Source of the DNA: Jimgerdemannia flammicorona
Lineage: Eukaryota
Direction: 5' to 3'
Length of the DNA stretch: 39,591 bases
Assembly: GCA_003990765.1 (NCBI GenBank)
Contig: RBNJ01000138.1
Span: forward strand, 1-39,591
Shown: piece by piece, positions 4,030 to 25,167 of the stretch
Numbering within the stretch: the stretch's first letter is position 1
Layout: every line of letters starts with the position of its first letter
Notes under the pieces: model-generated
Databases searched by the model: none
Told to the model about the DNA's origin: nothing
Seen by the model: only the letters and a program-made list of their open reading frames with translations
Translations under genes and position numbers: made by a program

Positions 4030-4445
4030 CTTGTTTGATGAGCCAAATCCTTTGGATCCTTGGATGGTGGGTAGTAGTTCAGAGACTTCCTTGACTGTCA
4101 GAGTTGATTCAATTTTCTCAAATAAGATCTGCATGATGCAGAAACCAATAGAGATCTTGAAGGGTGTCCAACTATGGTTTCAGATGAGAACAATAATTTC
4201 ACCTATATAATCTTTGTTAATGACTCCTCCTTCTACTGAGAGTCCTTTCAATGCTAGACTACTGTAACAGCATATTCTTCCAACATGTCCTTCAGGGATT
4301 TGAATACTGATTTCTGTATAGACTTGCTTGACTTCTTGGTTGGAAACTGTAGCTTTTTCAGCTACATATAGGTCATATTCAGCTGCTTTTTGACTTCCTT
4401 TGGTTGAGACCTTGGCAGTTTGTCTTAACTTGACAAAGTCCAGTA
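4030..4445 (-). pseudogene. dUTPase inside the retrotransposon polyprotein
   Basis: DFVKLRQTAKVSTKGSQKAAEYDLY...IQIPEGHVGRICCYSSLALKGLSVEGGVINKDYIGEIIVLI*NHS..PFKISIGFCIMQILFEKI...TIQGSKGFGSS: all five dUTPase motifs recognisable in decayed form. Confidence 0.9.
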
Positions 4446-5510
4446 TTCTAGTAGTTAGGTTATTGAGGTGGTACAGAGTAGTAACAGTTGCTCATAATGC
4501 TGTTTGGGATTTTCAGTTGAGGTAGATACTAGCTATGTGTTCTGTCTTTTGACAATAGAAGTATGCTCCACTTCTTTGAAGTTTATTCCTTTCTCCTTCA
4601 GTAAGTTTCTTGAAGGTACTCAGCTAGGTAGATTTATGATTTCTGGGTGACTATGAGGTGGGTATTGAGAGAGCTCAGGATGCTTTATGCTTAAGTTCTT
4701 CTTTCTTGGTCCAAGTCTTTTTCTTGTTGTTGAATTGTCTTCGAGGCAGAATTGGTTCAGCTATTAGAATTTGCTTAACTATAGTCTTGATTTTTACCAG
4801 GCATCATTGTTGATAATCACAATCAACTGAGTATTCTTGTTCTCAGATTTTTCTTGTAAGCCAGTTAGGTAGTACATTGAATAGATGGTCTGCTCTTGTA
4901 CCATTTTGTACTTCATCATTGGCAATATATCCTAGACCAACAGTATTCAGAAGTAACTCAAGTTTTATACAGAAGGTTTTGAATTCTTTCTTATTATATA
5001 TATTAAATTTGAGATTGCAGAGTTTTACTTGAGATTTGGTAATCATGGTTTTGCTGTGATATTGAGCAATCATAAGTTGTTTCAGTCCAGGGACTGCAGA
5101 ATAGGCTCTATATCCTGGGGCATTGTTTGCTGCATTCTGAGTAATTACTACAGGTTGGGTATCACATATGAGAGGTTTTTCAGAAAGAGTTCACCACTAT
5201 TCTTCAGCAGATCCTTGGAAGAATGTAACAACTTAACAGATATAGGCTGTTGTAGTAGCAAAGAGTTGTTCCAGAGTGTGGTCTTAATTGTTTGTCAGGA
5301 GGCAGTCAGCAACTTACTCATTGGTCTATTGATTGGCTTCAAAGTTAGTGTCAACTATACTAATAAAGCTTTGGACTTCTTGTGCAGTACCATTGAAGGT
5401 AGGTAGGCTCAGATTTTTAGTAAATTGGGTCTATTCAGCTAAGGCAGTAATGGTTGCTGTCATTATTACTACCTGGGCTATAAGGTCTAGAATCTGTTAG
5501 TTTGCCATAT
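4446..5510 (-). pseudogene. gag with degenerate CCHC zinc knuckle
   Basis: Knuckle GAYFYCQKTEHIASIY near 4520-4570 (decayed CX2CX4HX4C). N-terminal LPTFNGTAQEVQSFI near 5400 resembles a retrotransposon gag start. The coding-like region may extend upstream to ~6530. Confidence 0.65.
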
Positions 5511-9428: not shown

Positions 9429-11997
9429 AAGAATCATGCGATAAACTCCATCAAACTGGAGATCCATCACATATGCTCTTCCTAAGAAACCTAATAATAC
9501 ATCTGTTGTCAGCAGTAATAATATCATTCATTTGTCAATAGAGTTTTGAAAAGATCCAAACTACTTACCAACTATATGCAGACCACAGATGACAAGATTC
9601 AGTACACCATCTTCGGTTGACTTATCTATAGCATTTTTCATTACTTTACCAAGACTGACTAGATCCTGTTTAACCAATCTGATCTTTGCATTGAGTGGTT
9701 TTACCTTACCGACTAGCAGTTCAATATGCTTTTGGTCATGTGCTGTCCTGATAATAAAATCTGGCTTCATACCTCAGAGGGCTGGATCAAATCTCTTTTT
9801 CATCATTGATGATGATGTAGATGTGCTATTCGCCCTTTTGAATTAATAGAACAGTATTTATATCCCATTAGTACTATTATATAATATGGAGAATATTCTA
9901 TACCTACCATTCAAATATAGTTCTCCTGTTCTTAAAGAATGGTCCCAATACCGGAGCAATAATGGAGTGAATATGAGTGTCTTCGATATTATGGCTTTGT
10001 GTAAATGATGGCCGCTCATTGTTGACCCTTATATATCATGAGCAGTTTGAGAAAATAATATATTGTTTTTAAGCAAATATCATTATATATCTTGGTATAC
10101 ATATAGGTTTTGAATGATCTCTCTCATCAATTTACTGTTGTTTGTAGTTTGCAAGCTTTGAAGGTAGTTGTGTATAGCAGCCTTTTGCCTAGGATAATTT
10201 GGATTCTTACATGCAATCTAACAAATCATTATTAAACTAGAACAGGTATATATATGCTAAGGATAGATATGTTATATACATCCACCTTGATGGTATTGGC
10301 AAACATCTGAATGATATCATCTGAGATAAATATATATGGGTACATTTTTCGAAATTCAATGAACAAAGTACCCCAGAGCTCATCATCAAAATATCCATCT
10401 AGATCATATGGATTCTCTTCTTGGAAAACAAATACATGGCTTAAGACTCTGTAAAGACATTAAGTAGCTGTATTATTAAATATTCGTCATAATCTGATAT
10501 TGTAAAACAATAATACAGATAACACACAGTTCTTCAAGAGCTGTCAAGTAAGCCTGTATAGTCTCACACTTCTTGATGATTGCCATTCAATATTCACGGC
10601 ATTTACTAGAGATGTCATTTTTTCCTATCATCCACTGATTCAAAAGATAGATGACAATATAAACATATATGCTGGCATATTATAACATATGGTGCAAAAT
10701 AATATTCATTTACCCGAGAGAGATAATCATCCAGGTTCCATTCAATAATTCCAGGACCAATGAAATAGTCCATACAACTATCATTGCTTGCCTTGGAGAC
10801 AGTTGCATCACTATAAGGTGAAGAGAGGATGTAGGATGAATCGGTCACTACTGTATTTGGGCTGTCTGGAATCATATAGTCGACTCTTAATGGTCTTTTT
10901 CTTAGCACTATGGCTGGAGAATCTTTCTAATAGATATATACAGCTATTAATATCTAGACCTCTTTTTATAAATCTGAATAGTAATAAACTTACATTATCT
11001 TGTCTAGGAATGACTGGATAGTCAGATATATCATCGTACTCTTGATAGTGAATACCTGATATTTTGGAGGAAAAAGATATAACACCATTTGTTAAATGGG
11101 CTATTGGCTGGAAGGACCAATACAGCTATGAATAGGCACATCTTTTATTTACTACCCAGCCATCATCAAATCTGCCCCATTTTTACTTATGCCCTAGCAT
11201 AGCTTTACATGCCACCATCACACCAACAACCAATAATTATTTATGCAAATCCACCTCTTTATATGTCATATGTAGTGAATTGATTTTGCTATGAGAAATG
11301 AGCAGAGCTCTTCTACCTGTATCTTCAGCACCCCTTGAACATTTTGATGGCGATGATATAGCTGATATCATATGACCTATTTGAACCAAATATAATAAAT
11401 TCATATATATTTATAATACCTATGAGATAATTACATATTTTCAAATATACATACTTGGAGTTGGTATTGTTTCTCGTAGTACTCGCTTTGACATATATGG
11501 TCTGATGGATGGGGGTGGTGGGATATCGAGGTCTGAATGCCAAATAAACATCTGTTAGATAGGTATATATCGAAATAAACAAATATTACAGCAAATAACA
11601 TACACTGAAATAGTGGTGGTGTGACATCTGGCAGAGCTCGTTTGCTGGCATGAGGGCATTCAACAATGATATGGATGTGTCCATCATCAAGAGGTTCAGA
11701 AAAATACTTCTGGACCTTATGGGCTACTGGCAGATTAACTCCTTTTAACACAGTATCAATAGTAGCCATTGGATCAGCTTTGAGTGCGGTCAATAGAACA
11801 TTGGGGTTATCAAGTGGAATGTCAACCATCCATAGTTCGAGGTTTTTGGCTGTAATATGATCAAGTTCCGGTGAACATTTTTCTTTGATGAGGTCCTTCA
11901 GTGTACCGAAACTTTTAGTCTTCCTAATCTCCATAGGAAAGTTTTGGTGTAATGGGCTGGAATCACCGTAGATAAGATAGTTGAGAGTGATGGACAT
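9429..11997 (-). pseudogene. Crinkler (CRN) effector-like gene with C-terminal PD-(D/E)xK (REase-like) domain, multi-exon, 3' truncated
   Basis: N-terminus MSITLNYLIYGD...LKDLIKEK...LELWMVDIP...HIHIIVECP (CRN LxLxxx and HVLVxxP motifs). Downstream exons give KPDFIIR...ELLVGKVK and VMDLQFDGVYRMIL; GT-AG introns. Confidence 0.8.
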
Positions 11998-12984
11998 ATT
12001 GAATGCTGTATAAATGATCTGGTGAGATAATAGTACTAGTAGCAGTGGGTCCAAGATGCAGTATTTACTTACAGTTAGGCAGGCACACTATTATAGGTAG
12101 AGTAAGAGGGAAAACAATGCATGTTACACTTTTAATCAGACAGTAGATCCGAGATACTGGTAAACCTATGTCACACATCAGCTGCTTACCAATATAATGC
12201 CTATTTGGGTGCTGGCGCAGCATACATCCCTTAATCTATCATACTTTTCCAAAGAATCTTACCATCAGGCAATTTGTCCGCCTTTGTGCGGGGAATTGTT
12301 TTATCACCATCAAATGAATTATCTAATATGTCTGATGCCACAATCTTAATCATAATCATGTTTTCTACAAAATATATGCCATGTCTGGAATGAGACATAT
12401 GTTGTGTATAAGATCCTTAGTATATATACTGGCCAACAAAGGGAATCCCCACATCCTTAACACTACAATTGATCATGCAAGGCCTCTTTGCAAAAAGGTA
12501 TCAAGTCTACATTTAGGTGCCAATATTTTTTATATCCATCTTCAAATATGGCTATAAGAAATATCGATGCTTAATTCTGGGCTAAACATTTAAAACCCCC
12601 AACATGACCAGTACCCTCTGTACAAGTCTCTGAGAATATAATTTACTATATGTATAGACCCATATTCAAATAAAGTGCAGTTGCAGCATACTTTATACCA
12701 AAATTTACAATCTGGCTACTGAAGACAAATAACATCACAAATCTATTTGCAAAAATCTCAAATTCCACATTTCCACTCCTTACTGAAATCCTATAATATA
12801 TAACATACTATCAAACTATAGATATAATGTCAATCTAACTATAGTATAACTTTTGTCAGTATTGCCTTTTGCAATAGACAATTCACCACAGTCAGACTTT
12901 TTCAAGGATCCTGCTAGACTACTAGTTATATGCAAACTGGCTCTAGTAGAGCAACCATTTTTACATGTCATTACAGCCAGATCC

Positions 12985-15079
12985 CTACTCATCCATGACA
13001 ACAGGAACCATTGACATGACTGTGCTCTGCAGCAGCAGGTTCTCTGATACATATTTGGCCCTGATGCTGATGGTATACGTTTTACCAACTATGTCGTGGA
13101 ATACATCATCATATGCACTGGGATTTTCAGTCTATATAGGGGAAGGAGAATAAATTATACTTAAAGGACTTGACAAAAAAAAAAAAAAGGGAATAATGAA
13201 TATATATCAACATACTGCGAGATTGGCCAGTTCCTCAGTACTCATCTTGAACAAAGATTCGCCAACTGACTCAAATGCTGTTGTATTCATCTGATTGTCA
13301 GCTTCACCTATTGTGATTTTAAGAAGATACCTAAAACCAAACCTATATGTCAATATATATAAGAAAAAAGGGTTGCTGATTCATATTCAATTTTAATTTT
13401 CATACCTTGTATATATCTTGCCAATGTTATACATATCCATGTGCAGGACACTCTCCACTGTCTTTAATCTTCTTCTTGTACATGCCACAGGATGTATATG
13501 ATATCTCACTATCATTGATACTGATCACAACGACTTCTAACTTGAAGCAGATGTCTTCATTTTCATTGCTACAGGCCTTTTCAACTGCATCTACCAATGT
13601 CATCAATAGGTAGTTGACTGAATATGCAAGCTCCTCTGGTACACCATTTATCTTTACAGAGTCTTCATACCACCTGTGTAGCCCTTCATATTTCAGAAAG
13701 GCAGGATCCAGAAGTATACATGGATAGCTTGGGAGCTATAGAGATATAATTGCATGCGGTGAATTAATAAATATTTCTGTATCTGAAAGCCAGTTTTCAA
13801 AATCGGAGGACTTGACTACACTTACATCCTTTATATTCCTGGATAGATACCCCACAGAGCAAGGCCACATTTCCCACTGAGCCCTTGAATGACTCTACAG
13901 TGCTGCCCCACAGAGTGACAGCAATCTTTCCATCTGCATTGGCAATGGTAAACTTCCATCGCACCCACTTATTCCCATTCTTTGTACCACATGTAGCATT
14001 TTCATCACATTGAATGATAACTCTAATGACATCTGGAGAAAACAAAAAAGATGTCAACTATCTCCGTATTTTGCTAAAAATTCCAATATGACATATTGTC
14101 ATACTCACTTAGACCCCTCTGACTGGCATGTAAGTCAGATAACAGTGCAAGATCGAGCAACAGTCCTGCTGACTTCTCCTCAGATTTTTTAATAACTGTG
14201 TCCAAGGTGACAGTGTATTCCTGTGGTTTGCCCGGAATTATAGTGATTTTGAGGCCATTGATGCTATAGTGCTGTCCGGCTACAATATGTCTAAGCTTCG
14301 GCACATTGTCACTAAAGGCCTTGATTGAAATTGGACAGCCCTGCAGAATAATAAAAAATGTGAATAAAAAACACCTGTGAAATACACTCTCGATTGAGCA
14401 TCATCATTACCCTCACCTTTTTAACAGAGCACCAAGCTTCAGCATACTCCTCCTCCTTGCCAGCCTGCTTTAACTTTGTCAGTTTTATTGACAATGCAAA
14501 GGCTGCATCAAAGGCAGCAACCCTGGGTGCCACTGCAACTGGGGGGTAGCTGGCAATAAACACCTTCTTAGGGCATTGATCAGGAGTATCTGACTCAGTA
14601 TGGGCATGCTTGCGGGTGATCTCCTTAAACTCTACCAGATTCCCAATCATTCTTTTGGGGGTAGATGTAATTCTATATGTCTGTATGTCCATATGTCTGG
14701 GGCAGTATGTTGAAACAAATGAGATTACCTCATCATAACAAATCTACATGCAAGTCCATAATACTCACCCAGTAGAATGCCCATCTCACTTGAATTTCAT
14801 AACAGAGATAATTGAAAACAACTTTGGTGTCTGAGGGGTAGTTGAAATAACAGCTGTTGCCAAAATAATAGATTAGACTGACTTCACTGCCTGGTTACTG
14901 ACAAGGGGTCCCTGTTCCAAAAAAAACATGCCTGATATCCAATGCTCTCTATCGGAAATGTGCAGCACATATCCACGTCCTTCAGACATGACTTTGATTA
15001 TCTGCAGGCTGGGTTTGTAAGTGGTTATATGGTCTGGAGAACTGTAGTTTGCAATGAAGTTGATTGACAGGGTTGCCAT
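12985..15079 (-). pseudogene. RPA1: RPA1/RFA1-like ssDNA-binding protein, copy A (multi-exon)
   Basis: RPA70N-like YVLHISDREHWISGMF; DBD-B DVIRVIIQC...KIAVTLWGSTVESFKG...VALLCGVSIQEYKG; DPAFLKYEGLHRWY; DBD-C ISYTSC...YLLKITIGEADNQMNTTAFESVGESLF...KTYTISIRAK...STVMSMVPV; stop TAG at 12987-12985; internal stops. Confidence 0.8.
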
Positions 15080-15333: not shown

Positions 15334-16383
15334 TTATTCTTTGACTATGGTTGCAAGTGACTTATCAACCTCTTCAAAGAATTCCTTAATCAGTCTAGCT
15401 ATCCTCTGTCGAAAGCCTAATTGTGGCTTCACTGTAATAAAATGAATATCTACAAGCTTGTATGGCATAATCCCTACATGTCTATAACTGCCCAAACTAT
15501 GCCATAGAGGATACCGTATAGTTGTACCATCCCAAAGACTAATGCTGGCCAGAGATGTAGTATAGGTCCTTTCTCTCTCACTTATCACAGCCAATACAAA
15601 ATCTATAGACTTATTTTCTACAGCACCAAAGTCTACCAAGGGGCTATTGTGTTGGTCAGCCTTCTTAAAAACATTCAGTATTCCCCATGCTCTAGGCCAT
15701 GCTGTCTGTATTGCTGCACTATTGTGATTGTGAAATGATGTATTGTACCCAGATATATTATCAAGATTGTCCACCTTACACAGCCGGAAAACTGCATCAA
15801 TAAAGATACATTGCTGCATAAGCCCTTCAGTAGCAACCAGTCCACCCCATATCTGTGGCTCGTACTTTCGGGGGACTGCACCATCTGGTTCACGTGTTAT
15901 AGGGCACTTGATCTCAAAGAGATTACATTCAGCAGAGACTCTAGCCTGTCGGCCATTTTGCATAGCTGTTGTCCACAAAGCATCATTGGCAGTATGCCAC
16001 ACCACGCCAATGTCATTGGGCAAGTATCTGAAATGATCCACATCTGGAATTTTCACTATGCAGATCTCACGACAGTATATCCAGCACCCCAGTCATAGCT
16101 CAGCAAATGCAATGGCGACTGACTCGAATGCTGTCCCAAATCCACAGGCTGCACTACTGAATGGCTTGCCCCAACCAAGCAGTCTTTCCACAAAGTTCTC
16201 TATGAATTTGATGGGAGTACAGTATCGGTTGTTCAAACCCCACATAGTTCCAAGGTCTGAACCACCGACGGTGGTATTTAGAAGCTTATACCATCTTGGA
16301 TTGTGCTGTTTGATGGCACTGTGTTGGTGCTGAAACTCTTCGACCGATCTCACCAGCTCTTTTATATCTGTGATGGCTGACAT
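15334..16383 (-). pseudogene. YqaJ/lambda-type exonuclease, Asfarviridae D345L-like (349 codons, one internal stop)
   Basis: ORFs 16093-16383 and 15334-16056 are in the same frame, joined across TGA at 16095-16093. Motifs Q...RW....TTVGGSDL, AACGFGTAFE, YLPND (decayed SPDG), EIKCP..R...VP..Y.PQI..GL, AVFRLC, PRAWGI, VDFG. Intronless. Confidence 0.88.
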
Positions 16384-16522: not shown

Positions 16523-18459
16523 TTAATTCATTATAGCATGAGCTGTGCATGTAATATGATAATGGTGATCAGCGATAGATTCAAACAATGCACTGTGCTC
16601 AACTTCAGACAAATGTATCCAATCATCTGCCAAGACCCCCAGCAATATAACAGCAGCCTTTCTAAACACCTTCATATTTGTATTATAGTGCCCATCATCA
16701 ATGCAAACATGAAGCACATATTGAAGTGATAGACTAGAACATGCAATACCACAGTTATTGCATAACCACTGTCCAGCATATTTTGTGAGCTGTCTATTGT
16801 ACAAGCTGCATGTGTTATATATGATCTTCCCTTGTTTGATAATAGTGATATAGCCCACAATGGCACTGTAGTAGGGCTCATCCAGTGGAATCTCAGTATC
16901 CAGAAGAGTTCGCAGTGATGAGATTGCCATAACTCTCCGATAATCAGTCTTGTCATGACTCTGTGTAGTCCACCACTGCTGCAGAGCATTACTCTCAGCA
17001 TTGTCGAGATTCTGCCCAACACAGCTGATATCAGTGCATGTCAGGGTATACTGAGCATGGAATACCTTTGGCAGCACATTACTGATCACCAGGACATCAC
17101 CTGTTGCAACTGTCAGGTCAATGGCATGCTGTCCCCAAAATGTAACTGAAACAATATAACCATCTCTGCCAACTACCTCAAGTGAACGTTGACTTGTAGT
17201 ACTACCTCCAACATCTGTAGTGACCAGCTCACCACCATCTACCACCATACAAAGAATGTCAATAGATGTCTTTTTGCAAATATCTTCCAATGGTGTAAAG
17301 GAATACACCATCTCCAGATAGTCATCAGACTCACATGTCATTATGATTGCAGTATCTCTCATATCCAGGAATCGGGTTGGCACACACTGTAGCCTGGCAC
17401 CAGTGATGTAGCAACTGCACCCCGGTACCAGATCTCTGAATACTGCATCACTATTCTTTCCACTGACATGTATTTTAATAATATCCTATCGTTATAGAGA
17501 TAGTTAGGAAGCTATTCAAATGTTCAGCTCAATGCTATCTGCTAGATACTCACCCCACTCTGGTCATGGACTGTTAGACTGAACTTCTCATTCACAATAC
17601 CAGTTTGGCTTATAACTAGCACATGAACTGTAATACCAGATGTATGTGGCATTAGCTCACTGATAGAGGTGATTTTGGAGAATGGCACCACCTTCTGGCG
17701 CTTGACCTTTATTGCTGTATTCTCCTCTAGAGACCGCTTCGGAGACCTGGGAGCTTCACCCATTGCAATTTTGTCGAATTCTCGAATCACAAGGTAGCTA
17801 TTATACATATATACATACAAATTCCAATTATGCTCATATATAATACAATTACAAAAGGCCAAATACCAATAGGATACATATATAGATTTATGCTTAGTCC
17901 CATACTCATATTCACTGATGCGAATAATTGCGAATTCCTCTATATCGATAGAATTCATAGATATTGCTACATGTAATAATCTCACATTAGCCACAAAATG
18001 TCACTGCAATCTTTATCTACAAAGATGGACATACATACCCAGTATAGTCTGGTCGCTATCAGAGACAATGCATACTGTTTTGGCAAGGACTGGAACCTGG
18101 TCCCCATAGCTCAATATATCATCTACTGGAACCTGCTCAACCTTAAGTACCTGCAGAATAATATCGTCAGAAAGAGTGAAATGCCCCTTTCCAACACCTG
18201 CAACAAATCCTTTAGTTAGAGCAGTTGGGAGTATAGAAGAGATATTTGTGAGAGGTGGAGTCTCAGCACTGATAATAGGAGGTGCTGGCTCATCTTGAAC
18301 AAAGACCAGCTTGTTAATTCTCTCGGCTGGAGTTCGGATCACAGTGAATTCAAGAATTAAACAGAAACTACAGATTATCATGAAATAACGGAATATTGTT
18401 AATTCTAGTGTCGAAAATGCCAGAATAGTGTAAATGGCATACATACACATGGTCATCAA
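16523..18459 (-). CDS. RPA1: RPA1/RFA1-like ssDNA-binding protein, copy B (multi-exon; start uncertain, possibly pseudogene)
   Basis: RPA70N-like LTKGFVA...IILQVLKV...IVSD; DBD-A ITSISELMPH...FSLTVHDQSG; DBD-B IDILCMVVD...RSLEVVGRDGYIVSVTFWG...NAESNALQQWW; DBD-C IYNTCSLYNRQL...WLCNNC...YVLHVCIDD...KVFRKAAVILLG. Confidence 0.85.
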
Positions 18460-18878: not shown

Positions 18879-19180
18879 TTGTATTAGTATAGTTAATAGT
18901 ATATAAGAGCAAATGCACTTTTTGCTCAAAACCCTACTAAGTGACTTCGATATTTTTGCCCAGCCAATGAGCTGTCATTTAGCGTATCCTTTTTATTGAA
19001 AGGGATATGCTAAATGTGATTTCATTGGTCCAAAAAATATCAGGTGTCACCAATGAGCTATCATCTGGCATAATGCTAAATGTGGTTTCATTGGCCGGAC
19101 AAAATATTCGAAGTCACTTAGGAGGTTTTTGAGCAAAAAGTATGTTTGCTCCTATATACTATTAACTATACTAATAACAA
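18879..19180. repeat. ~300-bp nested inverted repeat (~92-bp arms)
   Basis: Arm 18879-18970 (TTGTATTAGTATAGTTAATAGTATATAAGAGCAAA...AAGTGACTTCGA...CCAATGA) pairs with 19088-19180 with few mismatches. Inner hairpin CATTTAGCGTATCCTTT / AAAGGGATATGCTAAATG. Sub-repeats CCAATGAGCTrTCAT and TGCTAAATGTGrTTTCATTGG each occur twice. Confidence 0.92.
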
Positions 19181-19299: not shown

Positions 19300-20957
19300 A
19301 TGCCTGATGATTATAACCCTGATGATTTTAAAATCTCTTGCATTCCAGCTGCAACCATAGGCAAGCTTGACCGATTTTTACTAGAGCAAAGATATGGCAA
19401 CAATCTGAGTATGGAGCAGAATAATGTATTATATGCTGTAGTAGACAATGGTCAGAATGTGTTCTGTACAGGCTCTGCAGATAAATATAGTTCTTGTCTG
19501 AGTTTGTTTGCAATCATAGTATACAAAGCTGATATATCCTTTATCAGGGACAGGGAAAACATGGCTACTCCTGCGAATGATTGCCCTTCTCTGCAAGAAG
19601 CATGGCAAAGAGAAAGTTGCTATAACTGCAACAACTGGTATCGCAGCCTCGCATATCAATGGTCAAATGATTCACAGCTTTGCAGGGATTAGCAATGGTG
19701 CAAAAAGTATAGGAGAGCTTACATCCAATATTATGAAAAATGCTACAGTGCAAGATTGATGGAAGACTGCTGTAGTGCTTATTATTGATGAGATATCAAT
19801 GTTGAGTTGTGAGCTATTTGAAAAGCTCGAGAAAATTGTGTGAAATGTTCATGGAGGAGATGTACCATAGGGTGGTCTCAAAATTATCATTATGGGTAAT
19901 TTCTATCAACTCCCCCCTGTTGTGGTTGAACAAGACACCAGAGGAATATATACTTTCCAGGCTACATCATGGACAGCATCCATTCACCTGACATTTGTTC
20001 TCAAAGAGGTGTACAGACAAAAGGATCCTGGTATGTATATATTTTCATTGGCCGTTCTAGTATTTCTTGAGTCTCTTTTATTAATGACTATCTTCATAGG
20101 CTTTATCCAGATATTAAATGAATTGCATGTTGGCCAAGTGACCAAAAAAACAGGGGATATAATGAGGTCTTTGAAACATCTGCTAGCCCTTCCTGACCAA
20201 AGGATCATTCCAGTATCACTGTAGGCATTTCGTTTCTTATGGTCCTCCTTTTGAATCCATCTGGGATTTGGACCCTTTCCTTAATGGAACTTGCTTTTGT
20301 CTAGCTTCCCAACCCATAAGAAGATGCAAGAAGCAAATTGTCATCAGCTCCAAAAGTTGACGGGCGAAGCCCATCGCTATTTTGCAATTGACAGTGGAGA
20401 TATGACAATGGTTGGGAAGCTGTGTTTGTTTCCTCAGACCTTAGACATAAAGGTGGGTGCACAGGTGATCTTGCTGAAAAACATGACAGAAAAACTGGTA
20501 AATGGCAGTGCAGGAATCATCAAGAGTTTTGTCAAGGACCAGGGTGAGAGCATATCATATCCTAGCATACATTTTGATAATAGAATGATACAAACAATCT
20601 GGCCAGAAGCATGGGAAAATGAAGACAGACGTATGTAGAATTTGCCTTTCGTCATTTGGTTTATTTTACAACTCTCTGACTGATAACCTACTCTCAAACA
20701 CATTAGATGGACTAATCCTGGCCAGGCATATGCAGCTGCCACTAGATCTGGCATGGGCATTGTCAATACACAAATCACAGGGAATGACCATTGAATATGT
20801 TGTAATTGATTGTACGCAGATATTTGCAGCCAGGCAGTTGTATGTGGGTGTATCTCATGCAAAGTCTCCCAATGAGTTGCAGATACTGAACTTCAGTTGT
20901 GTGAAATATATTGTGGATACTGCTGTCACAGCCTTCTATGAAGGTCTAAACAGCTGA
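19300..20957 (+). pseudogene. PIF1: PIF1-family 5'-3' DNA helicase (4 introns, premature stops)
   Basis: NVFCTGSA|GTGKT (Walker A split by intron 19481-19547, donor mutated GT>AT), TATTGIAASHINGQMIHSFAGI, LIIDEISML, GNFYQLPPV, LKEVYRQKD, KVGAQVILLKN..LVNGS, QLPLDLAWALSIHKSQGMTI, QLYVGVSH; stops at 19757, 19841, 19868. Confidence 0.95.
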
Positions 20958-20963
20958 TGTGGT

Positions 20964-22469
20964 TTATTTATCAGCTTTAAAGTATACCTCATAAATTCTT
21001 GCACTTATCCCCGCCATAACCTTTGGTCCCATTGCACTGTATATCATCATCTGTTGTTTGTCATCACTATTTAAAATGCTATATGCTGCAAACAGATTGC
21101 TGAGTGTATGGTAATATGCAGCTATCTTCTGTGCCTTGGCAAATGAAACTCCATGTACAGTTGCGAGCATTGCTGTAAAGACATGCTGAAGTGTGGCAGC
21201 ATTGGACTTATTGTTCAGTGTGCAATATGCCTGATAGATAATGAAGTATGGTGTTGTGAGATGTTTCTGGAGTGTAAGATATGTGGCTTGGTCGATGTAT
21301 TTGTCTGAGATGCCATCCAGTTGCTGGGTTTCCATTTTCTTCAGCTCATTGTGCAGTGTGGTAAGATAGGTAATAGTGTGATCAGTGCTGGATGTACACT
21401 TGACGAAGAAGCCATCTCTGGTCTGTATGGTGGAGATTGCCGATGTGATTGCCTGTGGATTGAATGCATCGACCACCACAGAATCATATTCCTCAATGAT
21501 ATACACAACCCGGTCTGCACCAGAGCACCTCAGCTGTGCCTTCTGCTCTGCAAAGCATCCATCCTTCATACTGGCCACCAGATCATCCATGTGCTTCCAT
21601 TCAATGATCCAGTTCAGCACCAGTTCCATCTTGTCACTATGCCGACGTGCGATCCACACAATGTCTCCAAGCTCCAGTGCATGCACCTCCACCTTGACAT
21701 GATGTTTCTGCAATTGTGTATAGATATAGTTGTGGTTGGCAATGGACCTGATCTTGTGGGAATCGAGGATGAGCACCATATCAAATGTGCCAGGGTAGAA
21801 TATAGTGGGTGTGATGGACGGGAATGATGGCCTGCCTTCCTCTCCTACTACCTCTGTCTTTTCCGCTGCTTGGGGCTGTCTGGTCAGGTGCTGTACCAGC
21901 AGTGCTCCAGCATCTGTCAGAAAATACTTGGCTGGATTGCTGTTTTTGATAACCAATCCTTTTGTCACCAGACTACTCAGTCCTGACAATGCAGCTCTAT
22001 CACAGTATAGCTGTGCAAGGGTTTCGAGCTCCTTCTTGGCAATGTGGACATCAGCAGCATGCAGAGCCACAAGAATAGCATATGGACTACTGCGTAGCCT
22101 GGGAGTGTAGGAATGGGGTATGCTACTAGCAGCAGGTAAAATGGAGGTACATTTGTTGTGATCCAAGAGCCATTTAGTCAGCTTGCTGACTATCTGTAGA
22201 CCAATACCATTCAGATGGCATGTATCTTGTAGTGATGTGAAGGGAGAGGGATGGTGTAGAATGACATTGTGGACCTGTAGAGCTTGAAGAATATCAGTAT
22301 TAAAGATTATGTTTAAAATATTACATTTTGCAGTATGTATATTGACCTTTTGATATAAATAGTATGCCTTAGATCCAGTGGCCTGTGCTTTGTGTATGTG
22401 CTCTGCAAGACATGCCAGATAGAGTGGGTTTGCACAGGACACATGGGTTGATTTTGGTATTGGTGGCAT
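20964..22469 (-). CDS. MUS81: MUS81 crossover-junction endonuclease (catalytic motif decayed; likely non-functional)
   Basis: CANPLY...HhH LNGIG; winged helix YTPRLRSSPYAILVAL; ERCC4 LILDSHK, LELGDIVW, IIEWKHMDDLVASMKDGCFAEQKAQL (ERK..DL..S..DGRF.EQK.RL with Arg>Trp/His/Cys/Gln); C-terminal HhH GVSFAKAQKI. In-frame 72-nt intron at 22275-22346. Confidence 0.95.
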   Translation of the reverse strand: MPPIPKSTHVSCANPLYLACLAEHIHKAQATGSKAYYLYQKVNIHTAKCNILNIIFNTDILQALQVHNVILHHPSPFTSLQDTCHLNGIGLQIVSKLTKWLLDHNKCTSILPAASSIPHSYTPRLRSSPYAILVALHAADVHIAKKELETLAQLYCDRAALSGLSSLVTKGLVIKNSNPAKYFLTDAGALLVQHLTRQPQAAEKTEVVGEEGRPSFPSITPTIFYPGTFDMVLILDSHKIRSIANHNYIYTQLQKHHVKVEVHALELGDIVWIARRHSDKMELVLNWIIEWKHMDDLVASMKDGCFAEQKAQLRCSGADRVVYIIEEYDSVVVDAFNPQAITSAISTIQTRDGFFVKCTSSTDHTITYLTTLHNELKKMETQQLDGISDKYIDQATYLTLQKHLTTPYFIIYQAYCTLNNKSNAATLQHVFTAMLATVHGVSFAKAQKIAAYYHTLSNLFAAYSILNSDDKQQMMIYSAMGPKVMAGISARIYEVYFKADK

Positions 22470-22503
22470 ACTGATTATTGCACAAGAGTCTGGCCACCAT
22501 GAC

Positions 22504-22513
22504 TATTTAAATA
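22504..22513. promoter_or_regulatory. Palindromic TATA element between divergent MUS81 and dUTPase-like ORF
   Basis: TATTTAAATA is a perfect palindrome, 35 bp from the MUS81 ATG and 18 bp from the opposite ORF start. Confidence 0.45.
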
Positions 22514-22530
22514 CTGCAAGTATCCCCACC

Positions 22531-22992
22531 ATATCTGCACTAGACATACATCTATATTACTACCACCCCTTAAAGTCTATTGCCTGCCCCCCTTGCGATC
22601 AACAGCATACTCCAAAGAGGGACTGTATAAGTGACAATGTTCAGAGCTACCCTCTACTTCACATAATACCAAAGACAAAATATGCATTTAATAGCTCTGA
22701 AGCCATAACAATTAACCCACATACACGAGCCCATATTACGATTGAAACTGCCATCAGCATTCCAGACAATCACTATAGATATATTATACTGCTATCTGGG
22801 TTACTGCCTCACATTAAGATGGAAACTACAACTACCTGCTTGGGATATACTGGTGTACTGAGTTTGGAAATATATAATAACCATTCTACTCCATATATAA
22901 TTGACATAGGGGGTTGTCTCTGTGAGCTTGTCACCAAGCATAGATATAGTAAGATTATATTTCCATTTTCATCTTCTTTTTTAATTGCATGA
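22531..22992 (+). pseudogene. Divergent dUTPase-like ORF (not in ORF track)
   Basis: Stop-free frame from CACC-ATA (likely ATG>ATA): YAFNSSEAITINPHTRAHITIETAISIPDNHYRYIILLSGLLPHIKMETTTTCLGYTGVLSLEIYNNHSTPYIIDIGGCLCELV follows the dUTPase beta-strand pattern but lacks the GVID catalytic motif. Possible intron from 22949. Confidence 0.55.
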
Positions 22993-23148: not shown

Positions 23149-23559
23149 CTATTTATTTATATATGGCATCTCACCACAGATGCGGCGGGCAAGAACCATA
23201 TCCTTTGGTACAAGTGTAACACGTTTGGCATGAATTGTAGCCAGGTAAGAATCTTCAAAAAGCTCGATAATATATGTCTCCGCTGCCTCCTGCAATGCAC
23301 CGAGAGCTGGTTTCTGGACACGAAACTCCATCCTGGCATCCTCTAGTATCTCACGGACCAAGCGCATAAAGGGAGCCTTTCTTATGAGCAGTTCTGTAGA
23401 TCTTTGGTATTTTTGGATCTCCTGAAGGGCCACTGTCCCAGGACGATAACGATGGGGCTTCTTGATTCCACCTCCTATAGGGACCGTTTTGCATGGAGCT
23501 GAGACTGTTTTGCGAGGTATCTTCATATGCTTCTGGGGGTTGGGTTGCTTTTGATGCAT
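23149..23559 (-). CDS. Divergent histone H3 variant, intronless
   Basis: [39 protein letters not shown]...[40 protein letters not shown]; first ATG at 23559; rewritten N-terminal tail. Confidence 0.95.
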
Positions 23560-23955
23560 TTTGTAATCATTTTTTGGAGTGTGATCCAATGTATTGGATA
23601 AAAGATATTTCTTGACAGTTTAAATAGCATTTGGCTGGCTAGTGTCCTGCTGTGTTTCTTTATTCATGTGACAGTTCCCCTGAATCCACTTCCATCAGCA
23701 GAGAATGGCCACCACAGGGTTGTATCTTGCCTGTGAATGGAGATATGTTAATTCCATTAGAGGTTTACTGAAATCAGAACCAGACTGGTAAACATCCCAA
23801 CATGATATGGGGCCCTTAAACCATAGTTGTTTATTATTCTAATAAATCAATTCTGCTCAAAGGTACATGTGATTAATATGGCAGAAAGTCTGACTGGATT
23901 GTTACAAGTATATAAGGACCTCTCATACATTTCACATTCATCATCTTTGAAAACG

Positions 23956-25167
23956 ATGGAGACACCTAAATGCAAGAAGAGAAAAAATGGTCCATGCAAG
24001 CAACCAATGCCAGATGGTATGTACATAGTACACCCTGTTTGTTATATCCTGAAAACTCTTCTCATTGCTATTTGAATGGCACAAATCCTTCCAGAGGCTG
24101 CACCAACAGATGTACAGCTTCCTGTTGAAATCTGGTCGATGATAGGTGATCATTTACCGGGCCTGCACCATCTAGCCATCCTGCAAAGCATCAATCATAC
24201 ATTCCACACTTTATTTAAGGACGTCTTTCAAAGCAGACTTCAAAGAATTTGAGATCGACTTGATCCAACAACACAAGATGAAGTACTTGCAGTCTTTAAG
24301 TATGGAGAGGAAGATGATCAAAAGGTACTTGTTCAAAAATGGTATAATTTGCCAGTTCAACCTACCATAGAATTTATAGTAGATTGTCTGTCGAATATGC
24401 TTTACACTACTGTTGTAAGAGCATCTGTACACAAGTATCATCAAAAGACCTTTTGGAGGTAGACAATGCTACATTTTGCAGTATCACATAGCTATGGACA
24501 TATAATTCCAGACCTTCTGGATTGTGATCTTCATATCAATGCAAGAACAGATCTTGGTGAAACACCACTTCATCTTGCACTTGATTGTGTGCAAATAATG
24601 ATGCTACTCATTGGACATGGTGCTACTGTCGATACTCGGGACTTGGCAGATGAAATACCATTGTCTGTTGCTGTAGAGATAGAACAACATGATACTATTC
24701 AATACTTGGTAGATTTAGGAGCAGATGTCAATGCATTGACCTGGAGGGGGTCTTTACTATATATTGCTGCAAGAAATGGAGATACTGCTACTGTGACAAT
24801 CCTTGTATCTAAAAATACTCTAGATGTTAATATTCAAAATCCTAATGATAAAATACCATTGCATTTTGCAGTAGTGTATAGATATGAAGATATAATAAGG
24901 AATCTTCTAGAGGCCAGTGCAAATGTCAATACTGTTGATAGATATAACAAGACCCCATTACATTATGCAGCTAATCACCCATTCCTAGTCTCACTAAGAA
25001 TAGCAGAAATGCTGGTTAGTAGTGGTGCATATGGAGATATCAGAGATACTAGCGGTAATACAGCATTTGATGTGTTATTTGATGAGTATGGACATACTCG
25101 AAATCGAAAACATAGAATAACTCAGTTGTTAGAAAGAGTGCAGAATAATAGGTTTGGTAAAAAATAG
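23956..25167 (+). pseudogene. F-box plus ankyrin-repeat protein with NLS-like N-terminus
   Basis: Exon 1 METPKCKKRKNG; intron 24017-24094; F-box-like LPVEIWSMIGDHL in frame with ankyrin ORF 24466-25167 (GETPLHLA, KIPLHFAV, KTPLHYAA, GNTAFD) across stops at 24250 and 24460. Confidence 0.8.

Follow-up and report, generated by a model that had tools for sequence, protein, structure and literature searches.

Histone H3 in Fungi and the Locus under Study

Fungi usually harbor one type of histone H3 plus a centromeric H3 (CenH3), and a third, strongly divergent fungal H3 would be unusual. In this work, we analyzed a divergent histone H3 open reading frame (ORF), hereafter the H3 ORF, located on contig RBNJ01000138.1 of the Jimgerdemannia flammicorona assembly GCA_003990765.1; the whole contig (39,591 nucleotides) was considered and is referred to as the window. 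In the explanation that we favor, and to which we attach a somewhat better than even probability, this ORF represents a solo, intron-less and lineage-specific gene for a divergent H3 variant, belonging to the nucleus of an Endogonales-like fungus; its histone fold would have been under selection for a long time, and several of its arginines would have been lost through CpG deamination.

Among the closest described systems are the centromeric histones. According to the part of the kinetochore study of Mucoromycota that we considered, CENP-A proteins exhibit a variable tail, lack Q69/F84, have a longer and divergent loop 1, and do not conserve the C-terminal tail (Navarro-Mendoza et al. 2019, 10.1101/706580). 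The same part of that work describes nine further H3-like “rare histones” having only some of the CENP-A features, and reports that sister orders of the Endogonales lineage have lost CENP-A altogether (10.1101/706580). The histone H3 of Nucleocytoviricota is treated in a review, a portion of which is considered here (PMC9145170). Searching the literature, we did not find any paper on Jimgerdemannia with a histone variant of this kind, nor any paper stating Q68, F84, and T107 together as CenH3 criteria.

Structure of the H3 ORF

The frame of the H3 gene contains neither stop codons nor frameshifts, according to the ORF listing (Table 1). Its product matches the Pfam Histone family PF00125 (E 1.7e-36, residues 11–127), and its best matches among solved structures are H3.3 chains (4h9n_A, 157 bits). 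For the residue comparison, we used a fungal H3 of 136 amino acids (P0060) as the reference: 79 out of 132 aligned residues are identical, and the other 53 (40%) differ. The H3 ORF is collinear with H3.3 and with the fungal H3, showing zero gaps from residue 33 to residue 133; thus, loop 1 has the canonical H3 length, as the first-pass annotation of this DNA had stated. The HAKRVT, PKD, and LARR segments, typical of H3, are also kept. The identity with P0060 is unevenly distributed, being 12/33 in the tail, 25/30 in residues 33–62, 11/15 in alpha1, 2/8 in loop 1 (residues 78–85), 19/29 in alpha2, and 7/12 in alpha3, for a total of 43/69 in the fold (residues 63–131). Within the fold, residues 68–91 have been rewritten most extensively, with the changes Q68M, A75L, Q76E, F78A, K79R, T80M, D81E, L82F, F84V, S86K, S87P, and I89L.

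Three of the differences, i.e., Q68M, F84V, and T107S, had been proposed as CenH3-like from the sequence, and the alignment with P0060 recovered all of them in a divergent H3 at the position reported. The use of T107 as a CenH3 marker comes from general background and from that annotation only. Across an alignment of 14 rows, Q68 is shared by all the other H3 sequences (13/13), and F84 and T107 are each found in 12/13 of them; the near uniformity of these positions makes the three replacements unusual. None of them is a transition, since Q68M (codon ATG) requires two nucleotide steps, F84V (codon GTC) a T>G change, and T107S (codon TCT) an A>T change. The neighboring N108Y is another change at a near-invariant position.

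The tail carries two deletions of two residues each and is four residues shorter than that of P0060. Both ARKS motifs have been lost, the K9 motif being QKH and the K27 motif being CKT, again as proposed in the first-pass annotation and recovered by the same alignment. Six lysines (K9, K14, K18, K27, K36, and K37) have kept their register; K23 has been deleted, and K4 has moved by one position. At the opposite end, the protein terminates with GEMPYINK, compared to GER plus one residue in H3, and is therefore four residues longer, a feature that the first-pass annotation does not mention. An AlphaFold2 monomer model built on the 14-row alignment, with low confidence (mean predicted local distance difference test score of 53), places helices at residues 40–59, 62–74, 83–113, and 118–127. 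As judged from its sequence, the H3 ORF is a genuinely divergent histone H3 variant.

Relatives of the H3 ORF

A word-indexed search of 5.8 billion proteins, from which the best 120 of at least 8000 scored candidates were listed, returned sequences sharing 40–67% identity with the H3 ORF; among the matches listed, no protein from any organism exceeded 67%. An exhaustive HMMER search against 1.84 billion cluster representatives, whose clustering at 50% may hide a close relative, gave 17,426 matches, with the top 150 at 53–67% identity. Moreover, a scan of metagenome contigs (best 80 of 200 relatives, from 378 pattern matches) retrieved only canonical-like loci with 58–72% identity, the value of 72% referring to a partial match. 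Two H3 loci were found on viral contigs, with 59–60% identity to the H3 ORF, compared to 63–67% for cellular H3. The ESM Atlas search yielded generic H3 clusters only.

A quick maximum-likelihood tree was built with 53 rows, none of them a CenH3, and 4 of its 50 inner branches were starred. In this tree, the terminal branch of the H3 ORF has a length of 1.04 versus a median of 0.09 (11 times as long), and the ORF has no supported partner.

Mutation Classes and Constraint on the Histone Fold

The 53 differences from P0060 were divided according to the nucleotide changes that they require: 8 arise by CpG transitions and another 8 by C>T/G>A changes outside this class; T>C/A>G changes explain 4, single transversions about 19, and for the last 14 no fewer than two steps are required. 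C>T/G>A changes thus number 16 versus 4 in the opposite direction. The eight single CpG transitions are R2Q, R8Q, T11M, R26C, R49Q, R52Q, T80M, and R131C. This distribution suggests an older divergence, shaped under constraint, to which recent damage has added about twelve of the 53 differences.

Neutral decay was simulated starting from 10 canonical H3 coding sequences taken from the metagenome loci (out of 12 retrieved, 2 having been excluded because of an offset in length). Each run was continued until 53 residues differed, under a generic and a C>T-dominated model, with 1000 runs each. Only 41/1000 runs (generic) and 8/1000 runs (C>T-dominated) were free of stops, the expected number of stops being 3.6–5.1. 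Furthermore, the simulated replacements had a mean BLOSUM62 score of −0.54 (sd 0.23) under the generic model and −0.39 (sd 0.27) under the C>T-dominated one, while the observed replacements averaged +0.04, a value rising to +0.39 when only the 31 differences in residues 35–131 are considered. The open frame and the conservative nature of the replacements imply that most of the H3 divergence would have been filtered by selection for a working fold.

A second line of evidence comes from the CpG content. Over the whole window, the observed/expected ratio (o/e) is 0.20 for CpG, 1.27 for TpG, 1.36 for CpA, and 0.94 for TpA. The depletion of CpG, together with the excess of TpG and CpA, is the mark of 5-methylcytosine deamination and not of repeat-induced point mutation (RIP); a RIP-type process was rejected on the basis of the TpA value and of CpG being the depleted dinucleotide. 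The CpG o/e of the H3 ORF is 0.58, that of its flanks is 0.14 and 0.18, that of a Mus81-type nuclease ORF is 0.20, and that of an ankyrin ORF is 0.22. When the H3 CpGs are split by codon phase, the o/e is 1.5 at codon positions 1–2 and only 0.24 and 0.28 in the other two phases, which are largely silent; in five other ORFs of the contig, the value at positions 1–2 ranges from 0.17 to 0.45. Nine of the 13 H3 CpGs lie in arginine codons, and all nine CpGs at positions 1–2 belong to CGT or CGC arginines. The fact that the CpGs of the fold arginines have been kept while those of the silent phases have been depleted implies that the fold was under selection during the depletion. This signature would speak for selection in the lineage and not necessarily on the copy in the window today.

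The Mus81 Copy as an Internal Control of Decay

The Mus81-type ORF offers a measure of how coding DNA decays on this contig. Its closest relatives are two J. flammicorona (Endogonales) proteins, P0121 (partial, 86% identity) and P0122 (44%), followed by chytrid and dermatophyte sequences. The similarity to P0121 extends for 246 nucleotides past the end of the ORF, which indicates that the Mus81 segment belongs to a repeated unit. The ORF also contains an in-frame segment of 72 nucleotides (approximately 22275–22346, minus strand), bounded by GT...AG and absent from P0122 and P0123; the segment is probably an intron whose translation happens to meet no stop codon, in keeping with a gene from a fungal nucleus. 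As a whole, the contig resembles the nuclear DNA of an Endogonales-type (Mucoromycota) fungus.

In the comparison with P0121, 34 out of 256 aligned residues differ, and 29 of these 34 differences are explained by C>T/G>A changes on the window side, 16 of which fall at CpG sites. Of about 13 arginine codons of the CGN type, ten now encode Gln, His, Cys, or Trp. One such change has turned the catalytic ERK motif, invariant in the five other aligned Mus81 sequences, into EWK. The Mus81 copy is, almost certainly, dead.

The two genes can be compared in the fate of their CGN arginine codons: 9 have been kept and 6 lost in H3, versus 3 kept and 10 lost in Mus81 (Fisher p 0.067), and the probability of six or fewer losses out of 15 at the Mus81 decay rate is 0.002. 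All six CGN arginines of the H3 fold (R69, R72, R83, R116, R128, and R129) have been kept. Thus, the ratio of kept to lost codons is 6/0 in the fold and 3/6 outside it (Fisher p 0.028; assigning R131 to the fold gives 0.12), a contrast drawn post hoc.

The six lost arginines lie in the tail (R2, R8, and R26), in alphaN (R49 and R52), and at R131; the change is G>A where arginine became Gln and C>T where it became Cys. The first-pass annotation had suggested that some Gln, His, and Cys residues are decayed arginine codons; the suggestion is borne out for Gln and for Cys (R2Q, R8Q, R26C, R49Q, R52Q, and R131C), while neither of the His residues fits. It had also proposed that the protein evades silencing through H3K9 and H3K27. 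The data do not support this idea, given that K9 and K27 are themselves kept and that the arginines of the ARKS motifs have been lost by the mutation class dominating in the dead Mus81, so that damage is a simpler account than an evolved escape. The simplest reading of the six losses would be deamination damage at weakly constrained or unconstrained positions, and not a designed escape.

A Possible History of the Gene and Its Present State

Based on these data, we can depict the following scenario. For most of its history, the H3 gene would have evolved with purifying selection acting on its fold, and its product would presumably have paired with H4 and entered nucleosomes. Such nucleosomes would have displayed a rewritten alpha1/loop 1 face (A75L, Q76E, F78A, K79R, T80M, D81E, L82F, and F84V), a changed patch at residues 86–90, which in other H3 proteins is read by chaperones, and a new C-terminal tail; moreover, they would have gripped the DNA ends more weakly, because R49 and R52 are lost. 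At present, the gene would lie in DNA rich in repeats and heavily methylated at cytosines, in which the neighboring genes are being destroyed by CpG deamination; it is deamination, and not adaptation, that would have taken the six arginines and both ARKS motifs.

Two present states are compatible with such a history. According to the first, which we regard as about an even call, the gene is a recently silenced and eroding relic of a once-functional variant; it is favored by the six radical arginine losses, the CpG-poor flanks, an upstream ATG, and the uniformly broken neighbors. According to the second, to which we give appreciably less credit, the gene still makes a working histone for which the arginines of the tail and of alphaN are dispensable; the reasons for this reading are that the frame is open and that the arginines of the fold have been protected. 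When the decay of the gene began is something that we infer.

Several observations weigh against the explanation favored here, i.e., a variant gene with a long history of selection on its fold. The flanks of the H3 ORF, including the side of the putative promoter, are as poor in CpG as dead DNA (0.14–0.18). On that side, the candidate promoter elements are TATTTAAA, 60–67 nucleotides upstream of the ATG, and CCAAT, about 35 nucleotides upstream, both being short motifs of a kind common in AT-rich DNA. Eleven nucleotides before the H3 start, an out-of-frame ATG (23568–23570, minus strand) opens a frame of 15 codons; it could have originated from ACG by a CpG transition, and would lower the translation of H3 if transcribed. 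The recognizable neighbors are all broken or decayed, with PIF1 in several frames and RPA in pieces. Furthermore, the Mus81 frame remains open for 501 codons despite the broken ERK motif; a dead gene being still open, the open frame alone is weak evidence in the DNA of this contig. The simulations assume descent from a canonical H3 and a mutation model that was assumed and not fitted, and do not include insertions or deletions. The CGN contrasts are based on small numbers (p 0.03–0.12), one of these contrasts having been drawn post hoc. Lastly, the argument for selection is drawn from the sequence pattern of a single copy, and a functional parent gene located elsewhere could have passed on the CpG-phase signature, in which case the signature would be uninformative about the copy in the window.

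Alternative Explanations

The alternative that survives best, although we consider it doubtful, is that of a working, specialized H3 variant whose arginine losses are adaptive, allowing it to escape the writers and readers of K9 and K27 or to loosen the DNA ends, perhaps in the chromatin of repeats or “elements”. It amounts to the proposal of the first-pass annotation, except that no mobile element is required. Plant H3 variants resisting K27 methylation through changes next to K27 provide a precedent. The open frame, the retention of all six CGN codons in residues 63–130, the excess of CpG in the arginine phase (1.5) compared to the depleted silent phases, and the six tail lysines still in register would all be expected of a working protein. 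Nevertheless, all six arginine losses are CpG transitions, i.e., the dominant neutral mutation on the contig, and adaptation would not be expected to proceed solely by these; the replacements of R by C at residues 26 and 131 are radical; none of the relatives among the matches listed shares the same states; and the flank on the promoter side has decayed like the surrounding DNA.

A related possibility, which we judge unlikely, is that the gene encodes a functional, lineage-restricted third kind of fungal H3, selected for its fold within methylated repeat DNA and representing a natural intermediate between H3 and CenH3. This reading starts from the combination of a CenH3-grade divergence in alpha1, loop 1, and alpha2 and a new C-terminal tail with an N-terminal tail having an H3-like scaffold. 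If true, such a histone could mark repeat, pericentric, or neo-centromeric chromatin.

Less probable still, and in our opinion quite improbable, is that the histone was left by a giant virus or by a very large mobile element, with the neighboring genes as its cargo. The first-pass annotation had likewise inferred a histone encoded by an element, an idea that the data do not support. An unusual cluster of DNA-metabolism genes does lie within 30 kb, the proposed cargo consisting of RPA, PIF1, Mus81, an EME1-like fragment, a weak dUTPase, a NIF phosphatase, and dsRNA-binding, ankyrin, and F-box proteins; in addition, the segment carrying Mus81, at least, occurs again elsewhere, its homology running past the end of the ORF. 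On the other hand, among the 130 ORFs of at least 70 amino acids found on the 39.6-kb contig, to which the scan for hallmark genes was limited, no capsid, polymerase, packaging ATPase, integrase, or transposase frames the H3 gene, and no terminal repeat does; the sole recognizable transposon, a dead long terminal repeat (LTR) retroelement at approximately 2.1–4.5 kb, is about 18 kb away. An element larger than the contig would escape such a scan. The best relatives of Mus81 are fungal, and its GT...AG insert is intron-like; no relatives of Mus81 or NIF were found on viral contigs. The viral H3 sequences, at 59–60% identity, are no closer to the H3 ORF than cellular H3. Other histones are also missing from the surroundings: tblastn with H4, H2A, and H2B from metagenome loci gave a best E value of 2.4 on the contig, and the Pfam Histone family matched the H3 ORF only. 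In the literature, nothing relevant was found on transposon-encoded histones, nor on giant-virus or endogenous histones in Mucoromycota.

That the H3 ORF is the centromeric histone of the host, an ortholog of CENP-A, appears very improbable. The absence of Q68 and F84, the replacement of T107, the non-canonical C-terminal tail, and a fold identity to H3 of 43/69 are what such a histone would show, and the part of the Mucoromycota study considered here reports a putative CENP-A in all the Endogonales examined (10.1101/706580). However, the same part of that study sets aside nine H3-like “rare histones” with partial features (10.1101/706580). Loop 1 of the H3 ORF is not longer than that of H3, and its tail aligns with that of H3 with six lysines in register; the first-pass annotation had listed a host CenH3 ortholog among the outcomes to be considered, and in both loop length and tail the ORF falls outside the CenH3 pattern. 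Moreover, no match above 67% identity was retrieved from any organism, Jimgerdemannia included, among the matches listed, though an 86% relative of Mus81 was, and the gene sits among dead genes.

Finally, a neutral dead copy of a canonical H3, all of whose differences are accumulated mutations (the annotation had considered a pseudogene explained entirely by transitions), can be dismissed almost completely: it would suit a graveyard of decayed genes with a CpG o/e of 0.20, but C>T/G>A changes account for 16/53 differences in H3 versus 29/34 in the dead Mus81, neither stops (3.6–5.1 expected in the simulations, where an open frame is rare) nor frameshifts occur, the replacements are conservative, and the arginine-phase CpGs are retained.

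Genomic Context

The features recognized in the window are reported in Table 1. The Pfam scan was performed on the 130 stop-to-stop ORFs mentioned above, and the versions starting from ATG were scanned as well. The GC content ranges from 28 to 46% across 1-kb windows of the contig.

Table 1. Features of the 39,591-nucleotide window and the evidence for each of them.
Feature	Position	Strand	Evidence and remarks
Remains of LTR retroelement	~2.1–4.5 kb: RNase H 2147–2383, reverse transcriptase 2552–2857, dUTPase 4183–4491	minus	Pfam
Crinkler N-terminal domain ORF	11434–12087	minus	E 1e-17; sequence after the domain looks degenerate
OB-fold fragment	13800–14057	minus	Pfam; separate, 2.5 kb from the RPA70-like gene
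252-codon ORF with EIKCP motif	15337–16092	minus	No Pfam match; beside the RPA, PIF1, and Mus81 genes
RPA70-like gene, broken into three ORFs	16526–18459	minus	REPA_OB_2 and Rep_fac-A_C in the 3' piece (RPA-like OB match 16526–17485)
Inverted repeat, 102 nt	18882–19176		84% complementary, 91 nt apart; just upstream of PIF1
PIF1-type helicase, at least four overlapping frames	19520–20954	plus	Pfam
Mus81-type ERCC4 nuclease ORF, 501 codons	20964–22469	minus	Homology continues to ~20690
Weak dUTPase-like ORF, between Mus81 and H3	22423–22989	plus	E 7e-4, fails the Pfam cut-off
Divergent histone H3 ORF, 136 codons	23149–23559	minus	ATG-to-TAG frame; ORF listing, Pfam, alignments
Parts of the H3 ORF: tail (1–33), alphaN, alpha1, loop 1, alpha2, loop 2, alpha3, four-residue C-terminal extension	23149–23559	minus	
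Codons for H3 residues 68–91 (end of alpha1, loop 1, start of alpha2)	23286–23357	minus	Codon comparison with P0060; coordinates from the ORF start
Candidate promoter elements	23593–23626: CCAAT 23593–23597, TATTTAAA 23619–23626	minus	Sequence reading only
Ankyrin ORF	24466–25167		Pfam
Second ERCC4/EME1-MUS81_C fragment	36104–36565	minus	Pfam
NIF phosphatase ORF	38931–39509		Pfam
SUN, F-box, and dsRNA-binding ORFs	On contig		Pfam

The PIF1-type helicase is evidently a frameshifted pseudogene, and no Helitron Rep domain was detected. The EIKCP motif of the 252-codon ORF is one that we take to resemble the active site of YqaJ/lambda-exonuclease-type nucleases; the ORF may belong, together with RPA, PIF1, and Mus81, to a set of recombination genes. 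The second ERCC4/EME1-MUS81_C fragment has no similarity to the Mus81 ORF detectable by tblastn and could be what remains of an Eme1-type partner and not of a second Mus81. The weak dUTPase-like ORF is likewise unrelated, by tblastn, to the dUTPase of the retroelement.

Besides its own entry, the search with the ankyrin ORF yielded relatives that do not exceed 37% identity, and it gave no sign of a repetition of the contig on the side of the H3 gene. A tblastn self-comparison of all the ORFs of at least 50 amino acids did not reveal any paralogous segment, save one short inverted repeat.

The first 8000 nucleotides of the window have a composition of their own. Around the dead retroelement, the CpG o/e is 0.00–0.03, without the excess of TpG and CpA found elsewhere on the contig, and the strands are strongly asymmetric, with a GC skew from +0.10 to +0.28 and a negative AT skew. 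This suggests a C>T/G>A hypermutation that is either older or strand-biased.

Significance and Comparison with Known Systems

An H3 whose fold has CenH3-like changes and whose tail is H3-like is relevant to the origin or replacement of centromeric histones, an issue that is open in Mucoromycota, where some orders are without CENP-A. The locus also provides a clean example, within a single contig, of how the CpG decay driven by methylation can alter motifs of the histone tail, ARKS among them, and a reminder that an open reading frame is no evidence of function in DNA decayed to this extent. If the H3 gene is already dying, it would chiefly serve as a caution and be a curiosity of minor importance; its interest would rise if it were expressed or conserved in related fungi.

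Among the solved structures, the mammalian variants H3mm7, H3.6, and H3.8 are, like the H3 gene considered here, restricted to a lineage, and they match its product with 150.0–153.0 bits, as canonical H3 does. They carry few changes in the fold and none of them is closer than H3.3, the H3 ORF being far more divergent than any of them. The viral H3 of Nucleocytoviricota shares with the H3 ORF the condition of a divergent H3 fold found outside the normal set of histone genes; it differs in its identity of 59–60%, and the H3 ORF has neither hallmark genes nearby nor other histones on its contig.

Compared to canonical and replacement histones (H3 and H3.3), the H3 ORF has the same length of 136 residues, is collinear from residue 33 to residue 133, keeps LARR, and has six tail lysines in register. 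It departs from them in 40% of the aligned residues, in a loop 1 with 2/8 identical positions, in the loss of the ARKS motifs, and in the extended C-terminus.

As for CenH3/CENP-A/Cse4, the H3 ORF differs in having a loop 1 that is not longer and a tail that is H3-like and four residues shorter. What they share is the lack of Q68 and F84, a replaced T107, a C-terminal tail that is not conserved, and a fold about 62% identical to that of H3; in addition, its residues Y108, T111, and L119 are presumably the states of human CENP-A. There is also a likeness in kind with the “rare histones”, which, in the part of the study considered here and by their description only, are H3-like proteins with partial CENP-A features that are not classed as CENP-A (Navarro-Mendoza et al. 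2019, 10.1101/706580).

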